64,000 nucleotides of DNA from contig OY970164.1 in NCBI GenBank assembly GCA_963706555.1, positions 4,966,816 through 5,030,815 of the forward strand. The letters run 5' to 3'. The position numbers were made by a program, and so were the translations under genes. Positions 5,525-29,823 of the stretch are shown piece after piece. The notes under the pieces were generated by a model. The model did no database searches. It saw only the letters and a program-made list of their open reading frames with translations, and had not been told where the DNA came from. Position 1 is the stretch's first letter, and every line of letters begins with the position of its first letter. Source of the stretch: an uncultured Acidimicrobiaceae bacterium. Its GTDB lineage: Bacteria; Actinomycetota; Acidimicrobiia; Acidimicrobiales; RAAP-2.

Positions 5525-6811
5525 TTAACCCGTCCTCTGCCCTACGCCCTTAACCGATGCTCCTATGGATCTTGTCAAGCCCCTTGAAGGATTTTCGGGA
5601 GAAAGACAGCGGACAGACCAATGATGGGCCACTCGACTTGGAGGGCAAGCTCTTATCAGGTCACGCGTCTTTGTGATCTGGTTGAACCCGGGCCACGGAC
5701 CGGCAAATCGGTTACAAGTCAGCCTCGAAGGACGACAGGCGTTTAGTGAGCCAGGTCCATGGCCCGGGGATCTAGCCGCGGGCAAGTAGCGGTATACCTC
5801 GCGGGCGACGTAGCGCTTGAGCATCCGAATGGCCTCGCGCTTGGAACGACCGTCTTTGACCCGGCGCTCGACGTAGGCCTGCGTATCGGGATCAGACGCC
5901 AGCCTCGTGATCACGATGTGCCACAGCGCCCGATTGGCCTGTCGATCTCCGCCGCGGTTGAGCCGATGGCGCGTCACTTTGCCCGAAGAGGCCTGAAGTG
6001 GTGAGACGCCGCACAGGTGGGCCCACGCCGCTTCTGAATGCAGACGTTCGGGATTGTCGCCGGCGGCGACGAGCAGCGTGGCCGCGGTGTCGATCCCCAC
6101 GCCGTAAACGGCGAGGAGATCTGGTGCGGTGGCTTCGAGAAGTGGGGTGATCCGGTCATCGAGCTCTTTGATCTCCTGTTCGAGGTCGGCCGCTCGGTGA
6201 GCCAACGATGACAACGAGGCCTTGGTGGCCGCGGTCACGGTGTCAGCCGGTCGCGACGGTCGCAGATTCTGGGCGGTCGCGATGAACTGCGCGATGGGAA
6301 GTCCTTGAGACGGCTTTGCAGCTGGTCAGGGGCGCTGTAGGTGAGTTGGCGCATCTGAGCGAGGGCCTCGACGCGGGAAGAGCGCGCCGAGCGCTTGGCC
6401 ACAGTCAGGACCCGGATGGCCTCGACCGAACCGTCTCTGCTCTTTGCCTGTCCGCGTGGCTCGTCCCGACAAGGCGGCACGGGCGGCCTCGACGGCGTCA
6501 AGAGGATCGGTTTTGCCACTGAAGCGGCGGGCCTGCCGGTTCTGCCGGTCTACTTCGACGACCTCGACGCCAGCTCGAGCGAGGAAACGGGCCACGCCTG
6601 CCCCATACGATCCCGTACCCTCCACGCCCACCCTGGTGACGTTTCCAAAGCCACGCAACCAGGAGAACAGGGCTGCATAGCCGCCCGGATTGGCTTCGAA
6701 CGATTCGGACCCAAGCAGGCCACCGACCTCGTCCAAGGCGGCGGCCACATGAGTCTCGCTATGAGTATCGATGCCACCGGTGATGGTGCGCGTTGCTTCT
6801 ACGATGGTCAT
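5525..6811 (-). pseudogene. IS110-family transposase, disrupted by two frameshifts
   Basis: N-terminus MTIVEATRTITGGIDTHSETHVAAALD..GVEGTGSYGAG (ATG at 6811). The middle part (EAIRVLTVAKRSARSSRVEALAQMRQL) is in a second frame. The C-terminus (LLAVYGVGIDTAATLLVAAGDNPERL..NRGGDRQANRALWHIV..LKRYVAREVYRYL) is in a third frame. The shifts are near 6470 and 6296. Confidence 0.85.
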
Positions 6812-7075
6812 GCCATCCCTTCCTTTCCTTAAGCGGTTGAGGGATGGCACGGCCGTCCCGTCAGGAGTGACGGTGTGGGTCGATCTGCTGCGAACAGACC
6901 GGCCTATCACCCCTCTGGAACGGGGCGCGCCGCGCCTCGTATGTGTTTGCCGGGAGCGCCGGTCGACAGCGTGCAGACACGATCACATGTCCACGTGATC
7001 TTGAGTCAGACCGGTGACCCCGGTGCTCCCGAAATTACAGAGGACCAACCTTTCGATGGTGGACCCTCATGGGAG

Positions 7076-7495
7076 TCAATGAACAACATCATTGGCGTTT
7101 TGATGATCCTGAGTGCCGTTTGCCACGAGTATCTTCACACTTGAATGAGCAACGGTCGACGTGGTCGTTGATACCGGGTGTAGGGAAGTGCTCGTCGTGC
7201 TGGAGGTCGATGCGGTCTTGAAGTGAGGGCCGACCACCGATCCAATAAATCCCGCGACTGCAAGTGCTCCCAGGCAGACGATGGTGATGCCGATATATCC
7301 CGCCCAAGATGTCTGCCTGTCGGCGTGGAGAGGACTCACGAAGTAGATACTAGGGAGCGCGACGTGGCATGCGCCCGATCCTGCCGATTCTCGGGATACG
7401 GTCGCGCCGGGGTTCGGCCGAGATATTGGACAGCGCCAACTCCGCTGGAAATGGTATCGACGAAAGTGCCACCTGGCTCCTATCAGCGATTCCAT
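7076..7495 (-). pseudogene. possible membrane-anchored LytR_C-like gene remnant, truncated next to the IS110
   Basis: TM segment WAGYIGITIVCLGALAVAGFIGSVVG, a Ser/Thr-rich linker, then VKILVANGTQ (LytR_C-like beginning) followed by a premature stop. Alternative frames downstream still read protein-like. Confidence 0.3.
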
Positions 7496-7977
7496 AACAA
7501 CCCCCGATCTTGCTGCGCACTGGATGCCTCAGTACATTGACGGCAGATTGGAGATTCATCTGTCTTCCTCGGAAGGTGAAACTGACGCGGATCTGGAACA
7601 GATCGACGAAGAACTCGTCGCCCTCGGATTGAAGCCCGAGCGAAATGCCGAGGCGATGTGCTATCCGGGGGGCGTCCCGGTTGGCCCAATGCAGTCGGAG
7701 GAGCGCTGCATCATGGAGACGCTGCACAAACCGCCGCCTCGGACGCTCCATCGCAATAACGGGAAGTTGTCGTCACCCCCCACCCGCCCAAGCCACTGGT
7801 GGAGAGGACGCAGTCCCAACGTGTCCGCTCATTCCAGCTTCGCGCACGCCTCGCCCTGGCTGAGGGTTAGCGAGTGAAGGGTGATCGAGTGGACGAAATT
7901 TTCCAGCTGAGTTCTGATCTGATAAGCACACAGAGACGACCCAGCCAACAGGGTGGGGCGAAGATTAGGAGACAGCC

Positions 7978-8304
7978 ATGGCCAATGAAACGCCGGTGCT
8001 CGACACAGTCGCTGCGATGACCCTGGAATCAGTCGCGCGTTGTGGCCTAGATCCTCACTCGTTGCTTTTGGTCCGCATTGCTGCTTTGGCCGCGGTCGAT
8101 GCAACGCCTGTTTCTTACCTGTTGCATGTTGGCCCTGCCTTGGAGACTGGGGTGACGATCGATCAGGTCCAAGACGTGCTGGTGGCTGTCGCACCGATCG
8201 TGGGGACAGCAAGAGTGACGTCTGCGGCCCTCGCGATCACAGAGGCATTGGGTGTGGCCATCGCGGTCATCGAGGCTGAGACCGACGCTGAACTCGATTC
8301 ATAA
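7978..8304 (+). CDS. carboxymuconolactone-decarboxylase (CMD)-like family protein
   Basis: 108 aa with RBS aggag upstream. LLLVRIAALAAVDATPVSYLLHVGPALETGVTIDQVQDVLVAVAPIVGTARV. Paralog at 40467..40793. Confidence 0.65.
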   Translation: MANETPVLDTVAAMTLESVARCGLDPHSLLLVRIAALAAVDATPVSYLLHVGPALETGVTIDQVQDVLVAVAPIVGTARVTSAALAITEALGVAIAVIEAETDAELDS

Positions 8305-8456
8305 AATGAGCTGAGTTCGGGGCGTCGAGTCACCACGCCCAGGAGCCGGCTCAATCATGACGCCAGTGTCAGCCGTCAAAACCCATTGCCTTCAGTCTTC
8401 ACATGCTCTATCTTTCGATGCCGTAAGGGATCATCTAACGAAGAGGGGGCGGACCC

Positions 8457-8885
8457 GTGGAACAACGCGGTGAAGGTTGGATTGTCTTTGCGGCGGTCGT
8501 GCTCGGAACCGCTGGCATCATGCGTGTCTTCGACGCAATCTGGGCCTTCCGTTACCACGGTGTCTTGCCAGAGAATCTTGAGAATGCCATCTTCGGCCAT
8601 AGCCTGAAGACGTATGGGTGGATCTACATCGTGGTGGCTGCCATCCTCATCCTGTCGGCACTCGTCATCGTGATGAACCGTTCACAGGTCGGCCGCTGGG
8701 TGGGCGTCGCCGCCGGTGCCATCCTCGCCATCAGCTCGATCTGGTTGATGCCCTACTACCCGATCTGGTCGCTCACCTACATCGGCATTGGCGTCCTCGT
8801 CGTCTACGCCCTCGCGGCGCACGGCGGGCGTGACGAGATCACGGTTCAAGAGCAAGTCCGTTACGAAAGTGTTCGCGAGGTCTAG
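8457..8885 (+). CDS. multi-pass membrane protein, paralog of 3966..4568
   Basis: 142 aa with a GTG start. Four hydrophobic segments, and near-identical to the inverted copy at about 4 kb. Confidence 0.75.
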   Translation: MEQRGEGWIVFAAVVLGTAGIMRVFDAIWAFRYHGVLPENLENAIFGHSLKTYGWIYIVVAAILILSALVIVMNRSQVGRWVGVAAGAILAISSIWLMPYYPIWSLTYIGIGVLVVYALAAHGGRDEITVQEQVRYESVREV

Positions 8886-9145
8886 GGAACAAGTCGGTCA
8901 AAGCACGCCCCCCGCCTGAGTCAACTGAAGGGGTTGCGGCGACGACCGCGAATCAAACCCTGACGCGCAGCGAGGCGCCGGAATGCCCGCATCCCACCCC
9001 TCGACGCCTTGAAATCCTCTCAGCGGCAGGGGCGGTATCGGTGTCGGACGGTTGTCTATCGGTTGCCCTAACACGAAGGGAGGGTCTCGATCTTCCCTAT
9101 CGCCCCGCCAGGAACCTGTCGGTGCCGAGAACCCATCCGCCCAGT

Positions 9146-9918
9146 TCAGGCAACTATCCGGTACTCGTGGATGAGGCCGCCCAGACGATCGGTTGTTCGT
9201 AGCCTGGCGAGGTCGACGTCGCCGATCAGCGCAAGAGCCGTGTCGAGCGCGGACGGCGCACGCTGGTTGAGGGAACGGTGGGGACGATGCGAGTTGTAGT
9301 GCTCGACGTACTCGGCGAGCACGGTCTCCAGATGGCGGCGGCCGAGGATGAGCGTCCGGTCGAGGCACTCGCGCCGCAAGGTCCTGATCACACGCGCACA
9401 GCCCTTCGCCTGTGCAGAGAGGAACTCCGTCCAAGTCGGTCCGGATCGCCGCGGCGACGGCTCGACGCCGTGACGCTTCAGGATCGCCCAGACGCTCGAG
9501 GCGGCGATGACAATGCCCATGGTGCGAGCTCACCGTGGATGCGGCGGTAGCCCCACTGTGGATTCTCCTTCGCCAACCGGAGGACAAACGCCGTGGTTCC
9601 CTTCGCGATGCCCGGTCGACCGGGTCGGCCGTGCGGGTACGTCGAGCGCTTGGCGACGAGGTCCCGGTGCCAGCGCAGCAGGGTTGCTGGCTGAACGAAG
9701 AAGCGCCCGAGTCGTCGGCGCGGGAGCAGTCGTGCGAGCCCCGCCAGAACCGCCCGATCCGCCGGCTCCAACGCCGGTCGCTGGACCTGGGGTCTGAGCA
9801 CCGACACCTCGTGGCGCAGCAGGACGACCTCGATGGCGAGGTCCGTATCGCTGTGACACAAGAGCCAAACCAGCTGGAGGAGACGGCCGAACGCTCGGTA
9901 GAGGAATGAGAGGGTCAC
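9146..9918 (-). pseudogene. rve (integrase-core) DDE transposase relic: N-terminal and C-terminal parts present, catalytic core deleted, plus a frameshift
   Basis: VTLSFLYRAFGRLLQLVWLLCHSDTDLAIEVVLLRHEVSVLRPQV..ENPQWGYRRIHGEL reads in one frame. A frameshift follows, then GIVIAASSVWAILKRHGVEPSPRRSGPTWTEFLSAQAKG is joined directly to [53 protein letters not shown]. Confidence 0.8.
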
Positions 9919-10193
9919 TGCCGCATGCTCGCCGCGCGAGAGTCTGGACGTCAAAGCCCAGTTCACAGCCAATGGATGGCATTTTCGGCACCGACAGGAT
10001 GTTGATCGGTCCTCCAGTGTGGCGTCGACCCCCTGGTCGATACGCCCGCTGTCGACACCTGTCCGACTTTTCGCTTGGCGGTTGCCTGCCCGTCGCTGAT
10101 CCTCGGTGCTGCGTCGCCTACGACGCCACCACCTTGGCGAACTACAATCCTGGTCAAGCGCAGCATGCTGAGACCACAGCCTGGCCGATCTTG

Positions 10194-10249
10194 TCGTCAA
10201 GCTCCCTACCAATCCTCGTCGTCGTCAAGCTCCCTACCAATCCTCGTCG
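10194..10249. repeat. perfect 28-bp tandem duplication (2 units)
   Basis: tcgtcaagctccctaccaatcctcgtcg occurs at 10194-10221 and again at 10222-10249. The second unit contains the last codons and the stop of the DUF302-like gene. Confidence 0.95.
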
Positions 10250-10569
10250 ATCTCTTTCGATCCCAATGAAGCAAAGAGACTCGACGGACGGTCATAGGAG
10301 ACATCGGCGCGGCCGACCTGGTCGGCGAACACCGCCACCCCGAAGGGAGCGTACAGCGCAGCTGCCGGATCGGCGTTGAGAACCCGCCACGCGAGATGCG
10401 GATTGCCCACCAGGTAGCGGGTCGCTCCGAGTGGTTCGCCGTTCAGGCTCAAAAGAGCACCTTGATCGAGGCGTGCCAGTGCCACGAACCCGGTCGGCCC
10501 GAGGTACACGGCAACCGTAGATTCCACGTCAGCCCACGAGACGTCTCGCAGGACAAGGTCGAAAGACAC
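10234..10569 (-). CDS. DUF302-like protein
   Basis: 111 aa. ..RYLVGNPHLAWRVLNADPAAALYAPFGVAVFADQVG resembles the DUF302 core. Assigned from memory. Confidence 0.55.
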   Translation of the reverse strand: MSFDLVLRDVSWADVESTVAVYLGPTGFVALARLDQGALLSLNGEPLGATRYLVGNPHLAWRVLNADPAAALYAPFGVAVFADQVGRADVSYDRPSSLFASLGSKEIDEDW

Positions 10570-10733
10570 GTGGGGGTCGAGAAGCGGGATCTGCTCGTCG
10601 AGGCGGGGCCCTGGTGGTCTAAAAGTCGTAGCTGCTCTTGTACGTGATTCGGAGGGTGTACTGCTCGGTGTCGGTGTGCATTGGCGCTGCCGTCCGATCC
10701 GGGAGGTAAGCGTTCTTCTGGCGGTTTGCGCCG

Positions 10734-11649
10734 TTACCCATTATCAGTTGCTTTTTTGATCAGTTCAGCCACGGTTTCGGGCTGGTTCCACTGGGGCCAG
10801 TGTGAGGCGTTTTTCACTAGGTGAAGCGACGGTTCCCTGAACAGCCGGGCTATCTCGGCCGCAAGGGTCGGGTTCAGATAGCGATCCGCCTCGCCAAAGA
10901 TGAGCGAGACCGGAACCTCAAGGCGTTGGAGTACTCCGCCGTCGATGAGCCGCGTCCTGGCTGACCAATGCGTTAAACAGACCTGCGGTCCAGGCGCGGA
11001 TAGCTGCGAGGGCATCAGACTGGGCCGCGTCGCCGAAGAACTGCGGGAGGATTGACTGTACGGCCAGGCTGTCGGGGTCGACGGCATCCAACCCCCACTG
11101 GTCGGCGGTGTGCTGGAGCAGCCAGAGACGCTGGCCCTCGTCATTGAACATGGCGTCGGCGAGTGGTATGAGTGCCGGATCGGCGAGCAACCGGATCATC
11201 TCAGGCAGGTGCAGTGCGGGCTGGTGCCCAAACATAGTGTTGAGCAGAACCAGATGGGCTACTCGCTGGGGATGGGCGACGGCGAACGCAACCGCGTCCG
11301 GCCCGGAGGCGTCGTGACCGACAAGTACGGCACGGCTAATGCCGAGCTGGTCGAGCACAGCCGCCAGTTCGGACCCATGCTCATCGAGGGAGAATCCGGC
11401 GGCATCGGCGCGATCGGACCGACCGTATCCGAGCCAATCGAAGGCCACGGCCCGTCTGGGGGACAGCCACGGAAAGAGTTTGTCGTAGATCCGGTGATCA
11501 TCGGGAAAACCGTGCATCAGGATGATCGGGGGATCGTCACCGGATGTATCGCGCACGAAGACGCTGCCATGGGGCGTCTTGACTCGTCGCTCGCTGTAGA
11601 ACGCAACCGGTCCGGGCATAACTTCTATCGATTCATCCTGCGTTGTCAT
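10734..11649 (-). pseudogene. alpha/beta-fold hydrolase with one frameshift
   Basis: ORF 10918..11649 carries PPIILMHGFPDDHRIY..VLVGHDASGPDAV (nucleophile-elbow-like). The C-terminal part (SLIFGEADRYLNP..VKNASHWPQWNQPETV) lies in ORF 10734..11144 in a different frame. The shift is near 10930-10990. Confidence 0.75.
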
Positions 11650-16070: not shown

Positions 16071-18782
16071 ATGAGTGACTTTCTTCCCTTCGTCGTCATC
16101 GGTGTAACGACGGGATCGGTGTACGGGCTGGCGGGGATGGGTCTTGTGCTGACCTACCGGACCTCGGGAATCTTCAACTTCGCGTTCGGCTCGATGGCCT
16201 CCGTAGCGGTCCTGCTCTTCTACGCGCTCGTTAGTAGGGCCGATGTGCCGTGGCAGCTCGCCGCCGTGCTCGCGATTTTGGGAATCGGTCCGGCTCTGGG
16301 CGTCGCCTTCGAGAGGCTGGCGCGCCGGCTAACGCCGTTGGCGACGAGTGACAAGGTGCTGGCGACAATTGGCCTTGTTCTGCTCATCGAAGGTGCGACC
16401 ACCCTGTGGGGATCCGACGCCTATGGACCCGGTCTGGTGGTCTCCCACCCGTCACTTCCTGGCACTGCCGTGAGAATCCTCGGCGTGAACGTTGGTGTCG
16501 ACCAGATCATCATCGTGGCGGTAGGTCTGGTCATGGCCGCGGTGCTGCACCTGGTTCTCGAGCACACCAGGATCGGTTGTTCCATGCGAGCGGTCGTCGA
16601 CAACCCGGACCTCCTTGCGATGACGGGGGTCAACCCGACGCGAGCACAACAAGCGGGTTGGGCGCTCGGGATCGGGTTCGTGACCCTGTCGGGCATGCTG
16701 TTGGTGCTGTCGCCGAACTACAACGTGACCGTGGCCACGCTGTTCCTTCTCTTTGTGCAGTCGTTCGGTGCGGCGGCCATCGGCGGGTTCTCCAACCTTC
16801 CTCTCACATACCTCGGGGGCATCGTGGTCGGCGTCATCGCCGCCCTCACAACCAAATACGTCACCACGATCAGCGTCCTCGGCGGACTGCCGACGAGCAT
16901 TCCCTTTCTGGTCCTGCTCATCGTGTTCGTACTCCCAAACCACCTGGCACCCGAACGGTCATCGATCGACCGGCCCCCGACCCGTCGGGTGCTGACAGTT
17001 CCCCGCTGGTGGCGCTGGCCGCTTCTGGCGGCCGCCGCGTCGGCGCTCTTACTCGTACCGCTGTCGAAGAACATGCATCTCGTCGACGTCTCGAACGAGG
17101 GGTTGTCCTACGCCATTCTCTTTCTCGGTTTGGCCCTTCTGGTGCGGACATCGGGTCAGGTGTCGCTGTGCCAAATGGGGCTGGCGGCGATCGGTGCGAC
17201 GACCTTCGCGCATCTGTCGGCGACGTTCGGGGTCCCCTGGTTCGCGGCGTTGTTCATCGGCGGCCTTGCCGGCGCAGCCGTGGGCGCGCTGGTTGCCGTC
17301 CCCGCCATCCGGGTGGTCGGCATCTATCTGGCCATTGCGACGTTTGGCTTCGGTATCGTGCTGGAGTACCTCGGGTATCCGACCAAACTGATGTTCGGAG
17401 AGGGCCTGATGACGGTACCGCGTCCGGTGATCGGTCCCTTCAACGCTGCCGACGATGTGACCTTCTACGTCGTCGTGCTCGCAGTGTTCCTCTGTGCCTT
17501 GTTGATGACCTCCGGCATACGACGAGCACGCCTCGGCCGGCTTCTGCGGGCGCTCGGAGACTCTCCTCGGGCACTTCAAGCACAGGGAATCTCCCTCAAC
17601 GTCACCAAAGTGGCCGTGTTCGCCATCGCCGCGTTCCTCGCCGGGGTGGGTGGAGCGCTTCTCGTTTCGCAGAACCAGTTCTTGACCGATGGGCCGTTTG
17701 ACCCGGTCAATTCGCTGACCGTGGTCGTGGTCGTCCTCATTCTGCGCATGGGCCAGCCACTCACCTCATTGCTGGCCGCCGGCGCGTACGTCGTCGTCCC
17801 TTCGTACCTCGGCGCACAGGGGCAGATCTGGTGGCTCTATGTGGGCTTTGGCGCGGCCGCTGTGCTGAGCGCAGTCATGGGATCGTTCGGATGGATCCCA
17901 CGTCTCCAGTGGGCGGCGCGTCCGGTGCCGCGCCATGTCGCCACCCGACAATCGGCGGGCTCTCCATCGGAACATCCGTCGGCTCTCCTTCGAAGGGATA
18001 GGGGTTCCGAGGGTCAGGTGGCGTCGACCAGGGGGCTCGACATTGACCACGTCACCGTGCGCTTCGGTGGGGTCCTCGCGGTTGATGACCTCTCCCTTCG
18101 TGCCCCCGTTGGTCGCATCACGGGCTTGATCGGGCCCAACGGGGCGGGCAAGACAACGACCTTCAACGTCTGCTCGGGCCTTGTGGGGCCGACGTCCGGC
18201 CGCGTGTTGCTCGCAGGCCACGACATCTCCAAGCTCGACACGTCAGCCCGGGCGCGACGAGGACTCGGACGGTCGTTTCAGATGGCCCACCTGTTTTGGT
18301 CCATGACGGTCCGACAGAATGTGGAGCTGGGGCGCGAGGGCTCCCTGGCCGGCAAGCGCGTCCTGTCGCATTTCGTGGCTGCCCCAGGGCAGGCCGCGCA
18401 GGTTCGGGCAGCAGCCTCGGAGGCCATGGAGCTGGTCGGCATCGCGCCGATCGCAGACCGTGAGATCGCGACTCTTTCGACAGCTGAACGTCGGTTGGTG
18501 GAACTGGCCCGATGCCTCGCCGGTCGGTTCGACGTATTGTTGCTAGACGAGCCTTCTGCGGGTCTGGACCATGCGGAGGCTCGAAGGTTCGCGACCGTCC
18601 TCACCGAGGTCGTCGATGCCCGAGGAGTCGGCGTGTTGCTGGTCGAGCACAACATGTCAATGGTTATGGACATCTGCGACCCGGTCAACGTGCTCGACTT
18701 CGGGCGCCTCATCTTTTCGGGTCCACCAGCGGATGTGGCGAACAGTGAGGTGGTCCGTGCCGCGTACCTCGGCATCGAGTAA
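16071..18782 (+). CDS. fused branched-chain amino-acid-type ABC transporter: LivH-like permease + LivM-like permease + LivG-like ATPase in one 903-aa polypeptide
   Basis: N-terminus FVVIGVTTGSVYGLAGMGLVLTYRTSGIFNFAFG (LivH). The middle part has about 10 further TMS (LivM-like). C-terminus GLIGPNGAGKTTTFNVCSG..LSTAERRLVELARCL..LLLDEPSAGL (ABC ATPase). Confidence 0.85.
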   Translation: MSDFLPFVVIGVTTGSVYGLAGMGLVLTYRTSGIFNFAFGSMASVAVLLFYALVSRADVPWQLAAVLAILGIGPALGVAFERLARRLTPLATSDKVLATIGLVLLIEGATTLWGSDAYGPGLVVSHPSLPGTAVRILGVNVGVDQIIIVAVGLVMAAVLHLVLEHTRIGCSMRAVVDNPDLLAMTGVNPTRAQQAGWALGIGFVTLSGMLLVLSPNYNVTVATLFLLFVQSFGAAAIGGFSNLPLTYLGGIVVGVIAALTTKYVTTISVLGGLPTSIPFLVLLIVFVLPNHLAPERSSIDRPPTRRVLTVPRWWRWPLLAAAASALLLVPLSKNMHLVDVSNEGLSYAILFLGLALLVRTSGQVSLCQMGLAAIGATTFAHLSATFGVPWFAALFIGGLAGAAVGALVAVPAIRVVGIYLAIATFGFGIVLEYLGYPTKLMFGEGLMTVPRPVIGPFNAADDVTFYVVVLAVFLCALLMTSGIRRARLGRLLRALGDSPRALQAQGISLNVTKVAVFAIAAFLAGVGGALLVSQNQFLTDGPFDPVNSLTVVVVVLILRMGQPLTSLLAAGAYVVVPSYLGAQGQIWWLYVGFGAAAVLSAVMGSFGWIPRLQWAARPVPRHVATRQSAGSPSEHPSALLRRDRGSEGQVASTRGLDIDHVTVRFGGVLAVDDLSLRAPVGRITGLIGPNGAGKTTTFNVCSGLVGPTSGRVLLAGHDISKLDTSARARRGLGRSFQMAHLFWSMTVRQNVELGREGSLAGKRVLSHFVAAPGQAAQVRAAASEAMELVGIAPIADREIATLSTAERRLVELARCLAGRFDVLLLDEPSAGLDHAEARRFATVLTEVVDARGVGVLLVEHNMSMVMDICDPVNVLDFGRLIFSGPPADVANSEVVRAAYLGIE

Positions 18783-18887
18783 GGCCGGGCGACGACGCTG
18801 GTGCCGAAGCTGGCCGATCCCCAGTGACCCATCCTCAAGTGGTCACGATTGTCCTCGCCCAGCGGGGTTCACGCTCCCACTGAACCG

Positions 18888-19808
18888 CTAAGGCTCCTGC
18901 CGAGGCGGGCGCTGCACGCCGCCGACCTGCATCCATTCGCAGAATGTCTCCCGCGTCACCTTCCACTGTCCGTCCACCAGAATCGCCCGGCCGGGCCGAT
19001 CGGCAAGGGTGATGTTGAGCGAGCCCGTGATGCGGGCCGTATATGACACGACCGCCTCGTGGTCATTGACGAAGCGGACGGCGTCGACCGCAAACACGAC
19101 AGTTACTTGTGGGACTTGACCACCGAATCGTGCGCGCGCGATCTCCGCCGCTTGCTCACGACATTTGCCCAGTCCGGCGCTGCCCTCCACCGATGGGACG
19201 GTGTCGTTCTCCTCGTCGACCTCTCCCATGTCGGCGAAGGCCTCCCCTACGGCAGCTCGTGCTCCGGCCTCATCATTGGGCGGGGGACCGCTCTGTTCCG
19301 CTCTGGGCGCCCCCCTACGGCGACGGGGAGGGCGCTGTTGCGTCGAAGCAGCAGGTTCAGGTGCTTCGTCTCGGCGCAACGCGCGCAGCGAGGCCGCGTG
19401 TTCGGCGGTAATCCCCCGGGCCCGTTGTTCGACCGCCTCGCGAGCGCTCAATCCGGCGCCTATCCAGTCCGCGAACTCGTCGAAGGGGATGCCGGCAGTC
19501 CACCACTCGCGCACGACGTCTCCAACTGTGCGACCGAGCAGCTCCAAGCGTCCGGCCTCGGCGGGGGTGAGCCCGAGTTCGTGCCACATGTAGGCGTCGT
19601 TCGCATCAATGCCTCGCCTCGCCCAAGGCAACGCAGATTCGTCCATCCACTGATGCTGCGCGTAGGAATGGATGATTCTGGGATCAACTCCTGCTTCGTG
19701 GAGTCCACGCATGGAACCAAACGAACCCGGCGCCGGCAGACCCGGCCCGCAAGAGCCGCTGGGTTGCCCCAGCTGCCGGTTGGGCCTGGGCCTGCGCGTA
19801 CGCCTCAT
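18888..19808 (-). CDS. hypothetical protein: Trp-rich repeats + Pro/Arg linker + C-terminal NTF2/SnoaL-like-looking domain
   Basis: 306-aa ORF. The probable start is the ATG at 19712 (MRGLHEAGVDPRII). Repeats such as LPWARRGIDANDAYMW and VREWWTAGIPFDEFADW. C-terminus ..VDAVRFVNDHEAVVSYTARITG..AILVDGQWKVTRETFCEWM. Confidence 0.55.
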   Translation of the reverse strand: MRRTRRPRPNRQLGQPSGSCGPGLPAPGSFGSMRGLHEAGVDPRIIHSYAQHQWMDESALPWARRGIDANDAYMWHELGLTPAEAGRLELLGRTVGDVVREWWTAGIPFDEFADWIGAGLSAREAVEQRARGITAEHAASLRALRRDEAPEPAASTQQRPPRRRRGAPRAEQSGPPPNDEAGARAAVGEAFADMGEVDEENDTVPSVEGSAGLGKCREQAAEIARARFGGQVPQVTVVFAVDAVRFVNDHEAVVSYTARITGSLNITLADRPGRAILVDGQWKVTRETFCEWMQVGGVQRPPRQEP

Positions 19809-20142
19809 CCGGACTGTGGCCTTTCGCCTTCTCGGTTCGAGCGGCCTCGAACCCGTAGCCGAACTCGTGCCAACGCACCGCTTCGTTCGCCTCTATTCCC
19901 ACGGCGCGCCACTCCTGGACGGTGTCAGGGGCAACGCCGCCCGTCGACCACTGAGCAGCGCGCAATCCGTCGTCTATCCCCGCTGCGACCCAGGCTCGAG
20001 CTCGGCTGATCGAGAACCGCCATTGGCGCCAGACGTCGGCGATCTCGGCATTGAAACCCGCGGCCAGCCACTCAGCGAGCTCCTCGGGCTCGCGGTCCTC
20101 TGGTTCCCCCGCATCGATTCGGGTCTGCATCACGCACCCCAC
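19684..20142 (-). CDS. hypothetical Trp-rich repeat protein
   Basis: 152 aa. AEWLAAGFNAEIADVW / ARAWVAAGIDDGLRAAQW / VQEWRAVGIEANEAVRW. It starts 8 nt after the VWA gene stop. Its 3' end overlaps the next ORF in another frame, so the two may be one gene with a frameshift. Confidence 0.5.
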   Translation of the reverse strand: MGCVMQTRIDAGEPEDREPEELAEWLAAGFNAEIADVWRQWRFSISRARAWVAAGIDDGLRAAQWSTGGVAPDTVQEWRAVGIEANEAVRWHEFGYGFEAARTEKAKGHSPDEAYAQAQAQPAAGATQRLLRAGSAGAGFVWFHAWTPRSRS

Positions 20143-20152
20143 CGCGTGCGCC

Positions 20153-21451
20153 TCAGGCCGCGCCCGGCAGGTTGATCGAGACGGTCCTTGCCCACTCTGG
20201 GACGCGGCCCGAGGAGTCCATCAAACCCACGATCACCCGAATGCCCCGGGGTGGTTCGGTTGGCCAAGGAGTGTGCCCGTCCGTGAGTACGACGATCAGA
20301 TCCGGCCTTGGACGCAGCTCAGCGGCCTTGGCCAATCCTGCCCCCATGTCCGCTCCCCCGCCGCCGAGGAGTTCGACATCACGAGCACGCATGACTTTCT
20401 GTGCTTCGAACGCCTTGGCGTCACAACACACGATCTTGAGATGACGTCGCCCGACGCCCAGGCTCAACAACACACCCTGGACCTCCGCCAGAGACTGGGC
20501 CAACAGATGGTCATCCATGCTTCCCGAAGTATCGAGGACCATGGCGATCTTGGGCAGGGGTTGACGGAGGCTGGGCAGAATCACATCGCCGGCCACGGAG
20601 GAACGGCGAGAGGGTTTGCGATAGCTGAAATCGACGCGCCCCGCGACGTCGGCGACTCCTCGACGAATTGCCGAAGCAAAGAGTCGTTGCCAACTGACCG
20701 TGGGCTCTAGAATCTCCGAGGCCCAGCGCCTCCAGCCAGCAGGCGTCGTTCCGTAGTGGCGCTGATGTTCCTCGATTCGCCGGGCCACGTCGCGCTCGAG
20801 CAGCTTCTGCCCCGTCGGACCCAGACCCGGTTGCCCGCTATCCCACGGGCGCGGCAGGCCATCACAGCCGCTGCCGCAGTCATGGGCCCGATCACCGGAT
20901 TCGGGGGCGCGATGTGCTGCTTCCGCGCTACCGCCGAGGGCGTCCCAATACTGTTCGGCAGTCCAGGAGTCGGGCAACCCGAGCGACGTCGGCGTGACCG
21001 CACCTTGAGGCCGGGCCGTGCCTCCGGCAACGAGGTCGTCGTTGATCTCCGCGTCGGCCGCCACGTTCCCCCGCTGTTCATCTCTGCTCTGGACGAACGT
21101 CTTAGGAACGACGCCGATCGGTTTCTGCGCCGGCGATCGCTCGGCATGGTGCCGCAGAAGATGGCTCACCTGGTGGACCAACCAGAAACCGATAGTCGGC
21201 ACGGACAGGTCGATCAAAACGTCGGGATCCAAATAGACGTGCCACTGTTGATCGACCGGCAGTGCCCCGAGATCGAGGAGGCGGGATTCGGGGTCGCCGG
21301 ACTGATCGACCACCACCGGATCTAAGGCGAGGAGGGCGTTCGCCATGTACGGAGCTTGGTGGGCGGCCCAGACCCGCGCCGCAGCCCAGGCGCGCCGCTG
21401 TTCTGTGCCGAGAGACTCAAGCGGACGGAGTATCACCTTGACCAGTTCCAC
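20153..21451 (-). CDS. VWA-domain protein with an N-terminal metallopeptidase-like domain (DUF2201_N + VWA-like architecture)
   Basis: 432 aa. WLVHQVSHLLRHH and AADAEINDDL in the N-terminal half. MIDAS IAMVLDTSGSMDD and ..GGGGADMGAGL..IVVLTDGHTPWP in the C-terminal half. Overlaps the ATPase stop by 35 nt. Confidence 0.75.
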   Translation of the reverse strand: MELVKVILRPLESLGTEQRRAWAAARVWAAHQAPYMANALLALDPVVVDQSGDPESRLLDLGALPVDQQWHVYLDPDVLIDLSVPTIGFWLVHQVSHLLRHHAERSPAQKPIGVVPKTFVQSRDEQRGNVAADAEINDDLVAGGTARPQGAVTPTSLGLPDSWTAEQYWDALGGSAEAAHRAPESGDRAHDCGSGCDGLPRPWDSGQPGLGPTGQKLLERDVARRIEEHQRHYGTTPAGWRRWASEILEPTVSWQRLFASAIRRGVADVAGRVDFSYRKPSRRSSVAGDVILPSLRQPLPKIAMVLDTSGSMDDHLLAQSLAEVQGVLLSLGVGRRHLKIVCCDAKAFEAQKVMRARDVELLGGGGADMGAGLAKAAELRPRPDLIVVLTDGHTPWPTEPPRGIRVIVGLMDSSGRVPEWARTVSINLPGAA

Positions 21452-22556
21452 CCATCAGACCGGCCGAGCGAAGCACCGGAGCAATCTGCAAGAGACCACT
21501 CGGCAACTCTGCACCCGGCGGACGCGCTCCCGCCAGAGTCCGTGCGGCCAGCGCGGCGACATCGGGAGCACGATCGGCGACCCGGGCGACTACCCGCCAT
21601 GCCGCCGTCCATGATGCGTCGTCTCCGTGTGCGACCGCGACAGCGGCCACCGCGGTCAGGACGGCGAAGGCTCGATCGCTACGTTCGGGCAGTTCGAAGC
21701 CGTCGGGGTCCGCCAACACCTCGTCGGGATTGGGGAGATCCATATTGGCGAGCCAGGACAAGAACTCGATACCCGCTCCGTCGCCGACCGTGCCGAGCAC
21801 CAGAAGCGTCCGGGCTTCATCCGACGCACCCACAGCGTCACAGGCCGCCAGCAGGCGGGCCACCGACTCCCAGCTCCTTGGACTCGGCCACGCTCTCCCC
21901 GCCTGATCCGCCACGCTCGAGACGGCCAGCACGACCGCTGGTCGTACCTCGAGGAATGCGCCCACGGTGGCCCGGGCGCTGAGTGATTGGGCATCGGTGG
22001 GTGCATGATCGCTAAAGCGAGGTGGGGTCGGGAAACCCAAAGCAATTCCCTGTGAGACCGACTTCGCATCAACCGGCCAGTCGAGGTGAACAAGGCGATT
22101 GGCCAGCGGGGCCGAAAGTTGCCACCCGTCCGCGGCCTCTTCGGGCGGATTGGCAGCAGCCACCACGCGGACGGACTCAGGCAGAGCGAGATCACCCACC
22201 ACTCGTTCCAGCACGACCCGGAGCATCGCCGCCTGCACCGCCGGTGGTGCTGTCGTCAACTCGTCGAGGAAGAGCAGACCGTGACCGGCAGCCGAGAGCC
22301 GCCTGGCCCACAGCGGTGGTGCCATCTGCACTGCTCCATCGATGACAACGGGGAGCCCGGCAAAGTCGGCCGGTTCACGGATCGATCCAATGACCACTTC
22401 CGTCGGCCATCCGAGGCTTTCCCCGAGAGCACGTACGACTGAGGTCTTGCCAGTTCCGGGGCTCCCCCATAGGAGAACGGGGACACCGGCCTGCACTGAG
22501 ATCGACAGAGCCTCACTCACCGATTCGATGTTGATGGCCACTACCTCCTCTCCCAT
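21417..22556 (-). CDS. MoxR-like AAA+ ATPase (AAA_5 type)
   Basis: Walker A LLWGSPGTGKTS and Walker B GLLFLDELT, then VRVVAAANPPEE..APLANRLVHLDW. The ORF is open to 22613; the likely start is the ATG at 22556 (MGEEVVAINIESV). Confidence 0.85.
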   Translation of the reverse strand: MGEEVVAINIESVSEALSISVQAGVPVLLWGSPGTGKTSVVRALGESLGWPTEVVIGSIREPADFAGLPVVIDGAVQMAPPLWARRLSAAGHGLLFLDELTTAPPAVQAAMLRVVLERVVGDLALPESVRVVAAANPPEEAADGWQLSAPLANRLVHLDWPVDAKSVSQGIALGFPTPPRFSDHAPTDAQSLSARATVGAFLEVRPAVVLAVSSVADQAGRAWPSPRSWESVARLLAACDAVGASDEARTLLVLGTVGDGAGIEFLSWLANMDLPNPDEVLADPDGFELPERSDRAFAVLTAVAAVAVAHGDDASWTAAWRVVARVADRAPDVAALAARTLAGARPPGAELPSGLLQIAPVLRSAGLMGGTGQGDTPSA

Positions 22557-22772
22557 TGTCTCAGATCCGAACGCTCCGCCAATCCGGCCTCCAGCCGGTC
22601 GAAAGCGCCGCACCGACGTCCCGGACCGTCCTTGGGGGTGGATTGGGCGAGTGCCACAAGCCGATCTTCTTGCGGCGAGGACACCCAGATCGGATCGATC
22701 CTAGGAGACCGGCTTAGGCCGGTGCCGATAACCGGGTATTCCCCGGACCGGCCAACCCCAAGGAGGTGCGTC

Positions 22773-23387
22773 ATGACGGCGCTTCTCATCGGATACGCCC
22801 GAGTGTCCACTGATCAGCAGGACCTGACATCCCAACGCGACGGTCTCGCCGCTCTTGGGGTAGCGGCAAACCGGATCTATGTTGATCAGGGATTGACGGG
22901 AACTAACCGCGAACGTCCTGGCCTCCGTGAGGCTCTGGCGGCTTGCCGTGAGGGCGACACCCTGGTGGTGACCAAACTCGATCGGTTGGCCCGCTCCCTC
23001 CCCGACGCGCGGGCGATCGCCGACGAACTCACAATCCGACAGGTGAGTCTCAACCTGGGCGGTTCCGTCTACAACCCCAATGACCCCATTGGACGCCTCC
23101 TCTTCAATGTCCTGGCCATGGTGGCTGAGTTCGAATCAGATCTCATCCGGTTGCGAACCCGAGAAGGGATGAAGGTGGCCAAAGCGAAGGGCCATCTCCG
23201 AGGCAAGCAACCCAAACTCAATCATCGTCAAGAAGCGCATCTGGTTTCGTTATTGGAGACCGGCGAGTACACAACGGCCGATCTGGCTGATCGGTTCGGC
23301 GTGGCCCGTTCCACGGTCTATCGGGCCGTCGAGAGAGAGCGGATCCTGCACGAGGCAACGGTGAGCACACCTCCGCCAGGGATCTGA
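22773..23387 (+). CDS. serine recombinase (resolvase/invertase family) with a C-terminal HTH
   Basis: RBS aggagg at 22761-22766. MTALLIGYARVSTDQQDLTSQ..LVVTKLDRLARSL..MVAEFESDLIRLRTREGM..ADRFGVARSTVYRAV. Confidence 0.9.
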   Translation: MTALLIGYARVSTDQQDLTSQRDGLAALGVAANRIYVDQGLTGTNRERPGLREALAACREGDTLVVTKLDRLARSLPDARAIADELTIRQVSLNLGGSVYNPNDPIGRLLFNVLAMVAEFESDLIRLRTREGMKVAKAKGHLRGKQPKLNHRQEAHLVSLLETGEYTTADLADRFGVARSTVYRAVERERILHEATVSTPPPGI

Positions 23388-28700: not shown

Positions 28701-29823
28701 GTGCATCCTCGCGATAATAACACTGATGTGGTTTCATGGAGGTATGCGACTTCCTCCACTCAAACTTCGTCGAGGTGACCGTGCCCAACTTGAAGCGCGC
28801 GTGCGGTCCAACACCATCGAGGCGCGGGCAGCCAAGCGGGCGCGCATGATCTTGCTCATGGCCGACGGCGAGTCGAATCGCACCATTGGTGAGCTGGTCG
28901 ATCTGCACTACAACCAGGTAGGTCTGTGGCGGAAGCGCTACGAGGAGTTCGGTCTCGCCGGCCTCGAAGACGAAGACCGTCCAGGTCGTCCCGTCGTCTA
29001 TGACCACGACGACGTGTTGCTCTTGGTCAAGCTGGTGACCGAGGACCCGCCCGAGGGAGCCACCCGCTGGAGCATGGAGGCGTTGGCCGAGGCTATGGCT
29101 CAGCACGGAGTGCCGATCTCGGCTTCGCAGGCCTGGAGGATCTGTAAGTCCTTGGACCTAAAACCCTGGCAGGTGGAGTCCTGGATGACCAGCCACGACC
29201 CCGACTTTTGGGCCAAGGCCTCCGATGTCTGTGGTCTCTACCTCAACCCGCCGCAGAACGCCGTGGTGTGGAGCGTGGATGAGAAGTCGGGCATGCAGGC
29301 CACGTCACGTATCAACCCGACCAAGCCGGCCGTCCCGGGCAAGCCCGTGCGAAGGGAGTTCGAGTACAAGCGCAACGGCACCGCGGTCCTCTTCGCCGCT
29401 CTCGACGTCCACGACGGCGGCATCGCCGGCTGGGTCACCGATTCCACGCGCTCGGAGAACTTTGTCGACTTCTTGGCTGATCTGGTGCGCCAGACCCCCA
29501 AGGGACTCGACCTGCATTGCATCGCCGACAACCTCAGCGCACACAAGACTGGAGCCGTTGCTACCTTCTTGGAGAAGAACCCCCATGTGCACCTCCACTA
29601 CACGCCCACCCATGCCAGCTGGCTCAATCAGGTTGAGCTGTTCTTCTCCATCCTCGAACGCCGACTGCTTCGACGCGGCGAGTTCGCCTCGGTCGACGAA
29701 CTGGCCGATCGCATCATCGCCTTCATCAAGGACTACAACAGACGAGCGGCACCGTTTCGGTGGACCTACGATGGCAAGCCCCTACGAGTCGCGTAAGTCA
29801 CAATGATTTACGCGCGGCGCCAC
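28701..29823 (+). mobile_element. IS630-family insertion sequence (about 1.1 kb) flanked by TA
   Basis: Intact DDE transposase inside. The ends gtgcatcctcgcgataataa (left) and the reverse complement of the right end, gtggcgccgcgcgtaaatca, match at 13 of 20 positions. TA at 28699-28700 and at 29824-29825, the usual IS630 target duplication. Confidence 0.6.
28744..29796 (+). CDS. IS630-family DDE transposase
   Basis: ARMILLMADGESNRTIGELVDLHYNQVGLWRKRYEEFGLAGLED (HTH), WSVDEKSGMQA, and the DDE_3 core ..HCIADNLSAHKT..HYTPTHASWLNQVELFFSIL. Alternative ATG at 28726. Confidence 0.9.
   Translation: MRLPPLKLRRGDRAQLEARVRSNTIEARAAKRARMILLMADGESNRTIGELVDLHYNQVGLWRKRYEEFGLAGLEDEDRPGRPVVYDHDDVLLLVKLVTEDPPEGATRWSMEALAEAMAQHGVPISASQAWRICKSLDLKPWQVESWMTSHDPDFWAKASDVCGLYLNPPQNAVVWSVDEKSGMQATSRINPTKPAVPGKPVRREFEYKRNGTAVLFAALDVHDGGIAGWVTDSTRSENFVDFLADLVRQTPKGLDLHCIADNLSAHKTGAVATFLEKNPHVHLHYTPTHASWLNQVELFFSILERRLLRRGEFASVDELADRIIAFIKDYNRRAAPFRWTYDGKPLRVA

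Follow-up and report, generated by a model that had tools for sequence, protein, structure and literature searches.

Gene content of the operon

We describe here a compact operon in a 64,000-nucleotide (nt) stretch of DNA (‘the window’) from an uncultured Acidimicrobiaceae bacterium (contig OY970164.1, positions 4,966,816 to 5,030,815 of the forward strand). On the minus strand of the window, tightly packed open reading frames (ORFs) occupy positions 18888-22613, just where a preliminary description of this DNA had placed them, and together they make up three genes: gene 1 (21417..22556), encoding a MoxR-type AAA+ ATPase of 379 amino acids (aa); gene 2 (20153..21436), encoding a 427-aa protein in which a DUF2201_N zincin-like domain precedes a DUF2201 von Willebrand factor A (VWA) domain; and gene 3 (18888..20142), encoding a protein of about 417 aa in which a predicted Trp-repeat α-solenoid is joined, through a disordered basic linker, to a putative NTF2-like domain (Mtb12_C). 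This ‘trio’ varies the MoxR/VWA theme in a form not characterised before, and its clade-wide HQxxH ‘pseudo-zincin’ and 13-residue Trp-repeat solenoid are features that we did not find described.

The preliminary description had counted four genes, the last two being ORF3 (20142..19684) and ORF4 (19808..18888). These are one gene and their ‘overlap’ is a +1 frameshift, because the homologues recovered in a search with ORF4 are single proteins of 408-434 aa that span ORF3 too, and because removal of one T from the TTT run at 19719..19721 (minus strand) restores a single 417-aa frame, colinear with the intact homologue P0001 (91% identical). In the DNA alignment at this site the window reads TTCGTTTGG against TTCG-TTGC in the intact homologue at locus L001, which has TT in place of TTT.

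The spacing of the genes also needed revision. We place the likely start of the ATPase at ATG 22556, because DNA homology with L001 begins at 22570, although the open frame reaches GTG 22613 (a 398-aa ORF). Gene 2, whose open frame reaches 21451, likely starts at GTG 21436, matching the 427-aa length of the 100%-identical P0121, and gene 3 likely starts at either ATG 20130 or GTG 20142. With these starts, the ATPase and VWA genes overlap by about 20 nt, not the 35 nt first reported, and gene 3 follows after 10 nt (if it starts at GTG 20142) or 22 nt (if at ATG 20130), rather than after 8 nt.

The +1 insertion is either a real mutation or an assembly indel, and the system may be inactive in this window unless the latter is the case. 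One alternative to a working trio is then that the operon is a decaying remnant in this genome, the frameshift being real and gene 3, or perhaps the whole system, non-functional; the split of gene 3 by a 1-nt insertion, the presence of transposase genes in the window and a cassette context unlike that of the closest relative would all fit with this. However, genes 1 and 2 are intact with all of their motifs kept, gene 3 otherwise shares about 94% identity with the intact copy at locus L011 and has no further lesion, and a run of T is a typical site for an assembly indel. A similar case is seen for gyrA, which is split into two calls (336 + 488 aa) in a long-contig metagenome-assembled genome (MAG; L006, 2538-5004) but whole (868 aa) in another assembly of a near-identical region (L007, 2540-5146); this suggests that indel errors are present in some of these assemblies, and so bears on the gene-3 frameshift. 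We regard decay as rather unlikely.

A MoxR-class ATPase with a distinctive C-terminal domain

Gene 1 encodes a MoxR-class AAA+ ATPase with intact nucleotide-binding motifs. Its AAA+ core spans approximately residues 6-165 of the 379-aa protein (25-184 of the 398-aa ORF) and is followed by a family-specific, helical C-terminal domain (approximately residues 170-370). The Walker A motif, WGSPGTGKTS, is kept in 63 of 64 loci, and the Walker B motif, LLFLDELT, is likewise conserved (motifs were checked in 64-66 loci); in the window these contain the GSPGTGKT and LLFLDE already picked out in the preliminary description. Three Pfam profiles match above their gathering scores, AAA_5 (34.2 bits, cut-off 22), Sigma54_activat (35.7 bits) and AAA_3 (28.7 bits, cut-off 27), and the subfamily assignment is a loose one because Sigma54_activat slightly outscores AAA_5; bpMoxR, at 28.6 bits against a cut-off of 27, falls below both of these on the same residues. 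The PHROG family phrog_1297 (‘ATPase’) matches residues 25-364 with an expectation value (E) of 3e-53, and in the PDB the AAA modules of midasin and PspF give the best matches by sequence.

On the Rhodococcus plasmid pRHL2, a separate 209-aa protein shares 38% identity with the C-terminal domain (E 7e-31), and both domains of gene 1 are common to the ATPase of phage Presley (25% identical). That this domain is shared with a phage ATPase, and forms a separate gene beside the VWA gene on Rhodococcus plasmids, argues that it is the part on which the VWA protein docks.

A zincin-like VWA protein without the catalytic glutamate

Gene 2 belongs, by homology, to the DUF2201 family: it matches DUF2201_N (PF13203; 2.2e-40, 139.4 bits, cut-off 23.2) and, C-terminal to this, the VWA-like DUF2201 profile (PF09967; 8.5e-17, 61.9 bits, cut-off 26.4), along with phrog_1314 (2.3e-40). 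With Pfam profiles above cut-off for both proteins, the AAA_5/DUF2201 architecture previously assigned to the pair is upheld. The description of the N-terminal domain as ‘peptidase-like’ fares less evenly, in that the DUF2201_N match supports it but HQVSH stands in place of HExxH. The motif in the window is HQVSHLLRHH, HQxxH is found in 67 of 68 trio loci, and the clade consensus (alignments A2 and A5) is H-Q-V-[ST]-H-L-L-R-x-H, with H, Q, H and H invariant or nearly so; the catalytic glutamate is therefore replaced by glutamine clade-wide, with the three histidines retained. In zincins generally, exchange of Glu for Gln in HExxH abolishes or greatly reduces hydrolysis. As the histidines are kept and the catalytic Glu is lost, the protein is probably not an active peptidase, and may bind without efficient hydrolysis.

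The metal-ion-dependent adhesion site (MIDAS) of the VWA domain is complete (DTSGS...T...TDG); DTSGS, also noted previously, is invariant, and the residues of GGGGTD and TDG are conserved, as is a clade-specific motif, DCGSGCDG..RPWD. Our AlphaFold2 (AF2) model of the protein has a mean pLDDT (predicted local distance difference test score) of 78, and no relative was found in the PDB by fold, single-sequence or profile search (best E 0.09 in a Foldseek search with the model).

A 13-residue Trp-repeat solenoid

The model shows gene 3 as a solenoid, acidic and rich in Trp, whose helix-turn repeats are 13 residues long; it is a repeat protein not described before. The AF2 model of P0001, built on a 73-sequence alignment, has a mean pLDDT of 87 and predicts two blocks of repeats, with a repeat unit of roughly W-x3-G-[FIV]-x-P-x-[ED]-A-x2. 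Block 1 (19783..20079, minus strand; residues ~22-120) is predicted to form eight helices of about 9 residues, joined by 4-residue turns, with a period of 13 residues, and contains the invariant residues W25, W41, W51, W65, W78 and W91. Block 2 (19365..19731, minus strand; residues ~138-259) is predicted to form nine short helices and ends in the highly conserved RARGITAEHAASLRALR; here the invariant residues are W165, W173, W186, W213, W214, E195, E222, E235, R253, L255 and R256. The module as a whole is acidic (pI ~5), and is separated from the C-terminal domain by a long, disordered and basic linker (residues ~260-290).

Both gene-3 ORFs gave no family match in Pfam, NCBIfam, PHROGs or PADLOC, so that the statement in the preliminary description that the repeat could be placed in no family holds. 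Searches of the PDB with the single sequence and with a profile also gave no match; with Foldseek, the repeats had no natural analogue in the PDB, the matches being to designed α/α toroids only (E 3e-4, TM-score ~0.2), and the best match for the gene-3 model in BFVD reached an E of only 0.08.

The C-terminal 115 residues of gene 3 are a candidate MTB12/Mtb12_C domain, both by fold and by precomputed Pfam annotation of homologues. This predicted NTF2-like, α+β domain (Mtb12_C, PF26580; 18924..19271, minus strand) was matched by Foldseek to MTB12 (8z9b_A; E 4e-3, probability 1.00, TM-score 0.48) and to NTF2-like enzymes; the precomputed PF26580 matches on homologues are in part marked ‘weak’, and our local copy of Pfam gave no match. 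MTB12 is a secreted antigen; a hydropathy scan of gene 3 found no hydrophobic N-terminal segment, and here the Mtb12_C domain is instead fused to Trp repeats or, in paralogues, to Clp_N. It is present in the versions from Acidimicrobiia only, and not in the ~250-aa versions of other orders.

The paralogues just mentioned are from Acidimicrobiia (L010, 6001-7209; P0077, P0083 and P0092) and have two Clp_N repeats where gene 3 has its Trp repeats, followed by the same linker and Mtb12_C domain, with up to 68% identity to the C-terminal half of gene 3; they are encoded away from the ATPase/VWA pair. Two different all-α N-terminal modules thus appear to have been swapped onto one C-terminal domain. 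Because the repeat-only form (~250 aa, e.g. P0111) occurs in trios, and the Clp_N-Mtb12_C relative does not sit beside the pair, the repeat module is the part of gene 3 that is tied to the ATPase and VWA protein.

The repeat also occurs well beyond the trio. An exhaustive profile search returned 1,344 cluster representatives at E <= 1e-3, including proteins of 400-1,600 aa that consist mostly of repeat; among 44 such large repeat proteins, eight have an N-terminal Ser/Thr kinase domain, two combine a kinase with a UvrD helicase and two have S1 domains. Its presence in kinase, UvrD and S1 proteins points to the module being a general cytoplasmic interaction or sensor scaffold. P0371, P0378, P0404 and P0417 are Hanks-type Ser/Thr kinases whose non-catalytic region is made up of the Trp repeat (P0404 having a low-GC amino-acid composition and C-terminal transmembrane segments), and in the two kinase-UvrD proteins, each of ~1,600 aa, it lies between the kinase and the helicase.

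Conservation and inheritance of the trio

We scanned 185,579 species-representative genomes with the gene-3 alignment, which gave 89 loci, and kept the best 80 of these, scoring the composition of each by tblastn with the ATPase and VWA proteins of the window. The order ATPase, VWA, gene 3 was found on one strand, with the genes adjacent, in 68 of these best 80 loci, and a further three are consistent with it but cut by a contig end; the order is therefore colinear in 71 of 79 informative loci (~90%), with one locus uninformative. Approached from the VWA side, three out of three VWA proteins of the HQ clade (51-61% identical) have the ATPase upstream and the Trp-repeat gene downstream (E 5e-49 to 2e-117). 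The idea of a single co-inherited operon, put forward previously from spacing, is hence supported by co-occurrence from both directions. Gene junctions in the trios are often 4-nt overlaps (as in L006).

According to their record titles the carriers are mostly Actinomycetota, with a few MAGs bearing other phylum labels, and include Acidimicrobiaceae, Streptosporangiaceae (Nonomuraea, Actinomadura), Pseudonocardiaceae, Solirubrobacterales, Actinoplanes and others. The flanks are syntenic within Nonomuraea, within two groups of Solirubrobacterales and within groups of Pseudonocardiaceae, and elsewhere the neighbours are mostly ordinary chromosomal genes (GlgE/TreS/Maf, gyrase/PspA, Pirin/RsgA). 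The trio is a vertically inherited operon of Actinomycetota, chromosomal and stable. Between the window and L001, DNA identity is 94.5% over exactly the three genes (22570..18887) and there is none outside; the flanking contexts of the two are unrelated.

Standalone copies of the Trp-repeat gene were also seen. In L036, L038, L039, L041 and L052 such a gene (at ~5950-6740) lies in the conserved order DUF488, an opposite-strand 201-aa ORF, the Trp-repeat gene, Lnt (LNT_N + CN_hydrolase) and a GT2 glycosyltransferase, and some MAGs carry both a Lnt-linked copy and a trio.

Relationship to known systems

Searching the literature, we found no functional study of DUF2201, PF09967, PF13203 or COG3864, and no solved structure; in keeping with the earlier view that the pair has no experimentally defined role, the only mention found is a comparative note on its phage version. 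In that note, Iyer et al. 2021 (PMC7824862) recorded that jumbo phages carry a pair of MoxR and metallopeptidase-vWA genes, and suggested that it functions in virion assembly and processing. Both proteins of the phage pair, found in N4-like phages (N4 gp25-like, Schitoviridae) and in group 2.2, PA5oct-type jumbo phages (PHROGs 1297 and 1314), are homologous over their full length to those of the trio, and the phage VWA protein has the same domain order as gene 2, zincin-like and then VWA. However, identity is only 22-26%, the N4 gp25-type protein keeps HExxH (as HELMH) where the trio clade has HQxxH, and the phage loci lack a Trp-repeat gene. A literature search on N4 gp25 yielded nothing informative. 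Phage DUF2201 homologues (PHROG 1314; e.g. L091, 3800-5005) are widely labelled ‘HNH endonuclease’ or ‘homing endonuclease’; as they align as zincin-like + VWA proteins, this label is probably a propagated mis-annotation.

A second group of relatives is the DUF2201 clade on plasmids of Rhodococcus, Mycobacterium and Streptomyces, whose VWA-like protein is 40% identical to gene 2 over 92% of its length (pRHL2 RHA1_RS41175; the plasmid locus is L092, Rhodococcus jostii RHA1 pRHL2, 6306-10941). Here the homologue of the ATPase C-terminal domain is encoded directly upstream of the VWA gene, as the separate 209-aa gene already described, and is not fused to an AAA+ core, a nearby ‘AAA family ATPase’ being unrelated. 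Unlike the trio, the plasmid clade has an intact HExxH (HEVGH) and no Trp-repeat gene, since the hypothetical proteins of the Rhodococcus plasmid locus are not Trp-repeat proteins; the genes are sited among insertion sequence elements.

Cellular counterparts are the couples NorQ/NorD, CoxD/CoxE, CbbQ/CbbO and RavA/ViaA, in which, as in the trio, a gene for an AAA_5-type ATPase lies beside, and is tightly coupled to, one for a VWA protein with a MIDAS. The working model for these couples has a hexamer on which the VWA protein is docked, and acidic surfaces on the client. The trio differs in that its VWA protein has an N-terminal zincin-like domain and its ATPase a different C-terminal domain; moreover, it has no adjacent client enzyme gene, a conserved third, repeat-containing gene, and no NCBIfam equivalog.

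A parallel to this three-part composition is found in the vWA-MoxR ternary systems (Kaur, Burroughs, Iyer, Aravind 2020) and the Esr pathway, which likewise unite a MoxR and a vWA protein with a repeat-bearing third component and share with the trio a link to Ser/Thr kinase signalling. The third component of the trio is, however, not of the VMAP, β-propeller or FtsH type, being a predicted α-solenoid instead, and its operon has no effector, kinase, phosphatase or FHA genes. A search of Kaur et al. 2020 for ‘metallopeptidase’ and ‘zincin’ did not turn up the DUF2201 architecture.

Genomic neighbourhood and the question of defence

A small serine recombinase (Resolvase + HTH_7; 22632-23387, plus strand) lies divergently some 60 nt from the operon, and the preliminary description had drawn the two together. 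Their adjacency looks coincidental, because no homologue of the recombinase is present in the 95 fetched loci and the window holds no second copy. A DDE_3/IS630-like transposase (28726-29796, plus strand) is located about 6 kb away, and a single 903-aa ORF (16071-18782, plus strand) combines two BPD_transp_2 stretches, of the branched-chain-amino-acid permease type, with an ABC ATPase and a BCA_ABC_TP_C tail, an unusual fusion of genes that are usually separate. The window contains no tRNA genes or Rfam matches, and direct or inverted repeats that might bound the cassette around 18888-22570 amounted only to short, chance-level matches.

Toxin-antitoxin genes (PIN/PhdYeFM and Fic/RHH) or rve transposases flank the trio in two further genomes (L093, 1933-2576 and 9047-9464; L095, 802-2397 and 6542-7639), with a DUF4132 protein also adjacent in L093.

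The preliminary description had thought an ‘accessory, possibly defence-type’ module plausible, and in its strongest form this reading would make the trio a conflict module, an NTP-dependent vWA-MoxR system that senses an invader through its repeat protein and then triggers a response. In its favour are the resemblance of MoxR, vWA and a repeat-bearing third protein to the logic of the ternary systems and of Esr, an ATPase that scores narrowly above the bpMoxR gathering score, the use of the Trp repeat in Ser/Thr kinases and kinase-UvrD fusions, the toxin-antitoxin genes or transposases beside some loci, and the unrelated contexts of the window and L001 despite the near-identity of their cassettes. 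Against this, PADLOC-DB 2.0 gave no specific match for any of the proteins: the ATPase had only generic AAA matches (RtcR/PspF, IetA, mad8, TRIP13; E 1e-7 to 4e-3), and the VWA protein and both gene-3 ORFs had none. No effector domain (nuclease, TIR, caspase or pore-former) was found in the operon or in its conserved flanks, and the sole enzyme-like domain lacks its catalytic Glu. No phage genes were seen in the flanks of the window operon or of the relatives’ loci examined, and no relative of gene 3 was found in 2.9 million viral contigs (IMG/VR), the trio being chromosomal. Flank synteny within genera, neighbours that are mostly housekeeping genes and an ATPase that keeps 60-85% identity between classes, more than is usual for a gene of defence, tell the same way. 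We therefore consider the defence reading unsupported, and improbable, since nothing that we found marks the trio as a mobile anti-phage system. The presence of the Trp repeat in Ser/Thr kinases, and the few loci that sit beside toxin-antitoxin genes or transposases, are nonetheless compatible with a role in signalling or conflict.

Discussion

By analogy with NorQ/NorD and related couples, we tentatively propose that the trio works as one ATP-driven, MoxR/VWA-type machine for protein remodelling or signalling, a proposal that we would place somewhat short of probable. In the best-studied example NorQ is a hexamer, the VWA domain of NorD plugs its pore, and carboxylates on the surface of the client are required. 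Transposed to the trio, the ATPase would form the hexamer, on which the gene-2 protein would dock via its own VWA domain and the C-terminal domain of the ATPase; the non-hydrolytic zincin-like cleft and the MIDAS would then serve to hold an acidic partner rather than to cut it. A cleft that does not hydrolyse would be in line with Kaur et al. 2020, who describe the peptidase domains joined to vWA components of related systems as frequently inactive in catalysis. We suggest that the partner so held would be the Trp solenoid, which might confer specificity as an adaptor, bringing in a client or ligand (in Acidimicrobiia by means of the NTF2-like Mtb12_C domain), or might itself be the client that is remodelled.

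Several observations weigh against this proposal. The Trp-repeat gene stands apart from the pair in eight loci, and in five of these it lies upstream of Lnt and the GT2 glycosyltransferase, so that the Trp-repeat protein can work independently of the pair. No conserved client gene adjoins the trio in the neighbourhoods examined, which differ between families. The HQxxH zincin could keep some activity, since its presumed inactivity is read from general zincin chemistry, and our AF2 model of gene 2 is of moderate confidence only, with no counterpart in the PDB. Finally, the sole apparent fusion of gene 2 to gene 3 (P0416, 419 aa; DUF2201_N + Trp repeat) is an artefact: owing to a frameshift, the reading runs on from one gene into its neighbour, and the stretch that joins the two parts is out of frame and rich in Arg and His.

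Going further, we speculate that the 13-residue Trp repeat might represent a new class of domain for sensing or interaction in the cytoplasm, employed in MoxR/VWA operons, Hanks-type kinases and kinase-UvrD proteins alike, and that the trio might constitute a new ATP-dependent sensing pathway, in which the pseudo-peptidase-VWA protein would hold the solenoid ‘off’ until a ligand or stress allows the AAA+ ring to remodel it; the system would then derive from an assembly chaperone of phages that cells had turned to signalling. This extended scheme is doubtful as a whole, and is offered as such.

The best-documented role of MoxR/VWA couples is another, and if the trio followed it the pair would be a dedicated maturation chaperone, as are NorQ/NorD, CoxD/CoxE and CbbQ/CbbO, that inserts or repairs a metal centre, with gene 3 as an accessory. 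The conserved His/Cys motifs of gene 2 (HQxxHx4H and DCGSGCDG) could indeed bind metal, and the stable, chromosomal inheritance of the operon would suit such a function; yet no lineage has a conserved client enzyme gene beside the trio, the neighbourhoods varying by family, and NCBIfam gave no equivalog that would tie it to a known maturation system, which together make this reading improbable. Least likely of all, in our view, is a processing system in which the ATPase unfolds the solenoid and the zincin-like domain cleaves it, freeing the Mtb12_C domain or a peptide, in line with the combined chaperone and peptidolytic role proposed for the jumbo-phage version: the phage and plasmid relatives do have an intact HExxH, and the long, disordered basic linker of gene 3 could be a cleavage site, but the catalytic Glu is Gln in all but one of the trio loci and most trios outside Acidimicrobiia have neither the linker nor a C-terminal domain to release.

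Returning to the trio as a MoxR/VWA-type machine, MoxR/VWA couples are widespread and, to our knowledge, only a handful have a client established. At the level of annotation, the present analysis corrects the locus to three genes, separates it from the neighbouring recombinase and indicates that the phage homologues are probably mislabelled as ‘HNH endonuclease’. More broadly, the operon adds to these couples a well-delimited and conserved ternary version, whose zincin-like domain has systematically lost its catalytic Glu, and it provides an evolutionary link between a phage pair, of the N4 gp25 type, and a chromosomal system of actinobacteria. It also brings to light an unnamed but confidently modelled repeat family of some 1,300 cluster representatives, found in Ser/Thr kinases and helicase fusions as well, that could be defined as a new domain. 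Cultured carriers of the trio exist (Nonomuraea, Actinomadura, Actinoplanes, Amycolatopsis anabasis and Actinocrispum), and its function is therefore open to experimental test.

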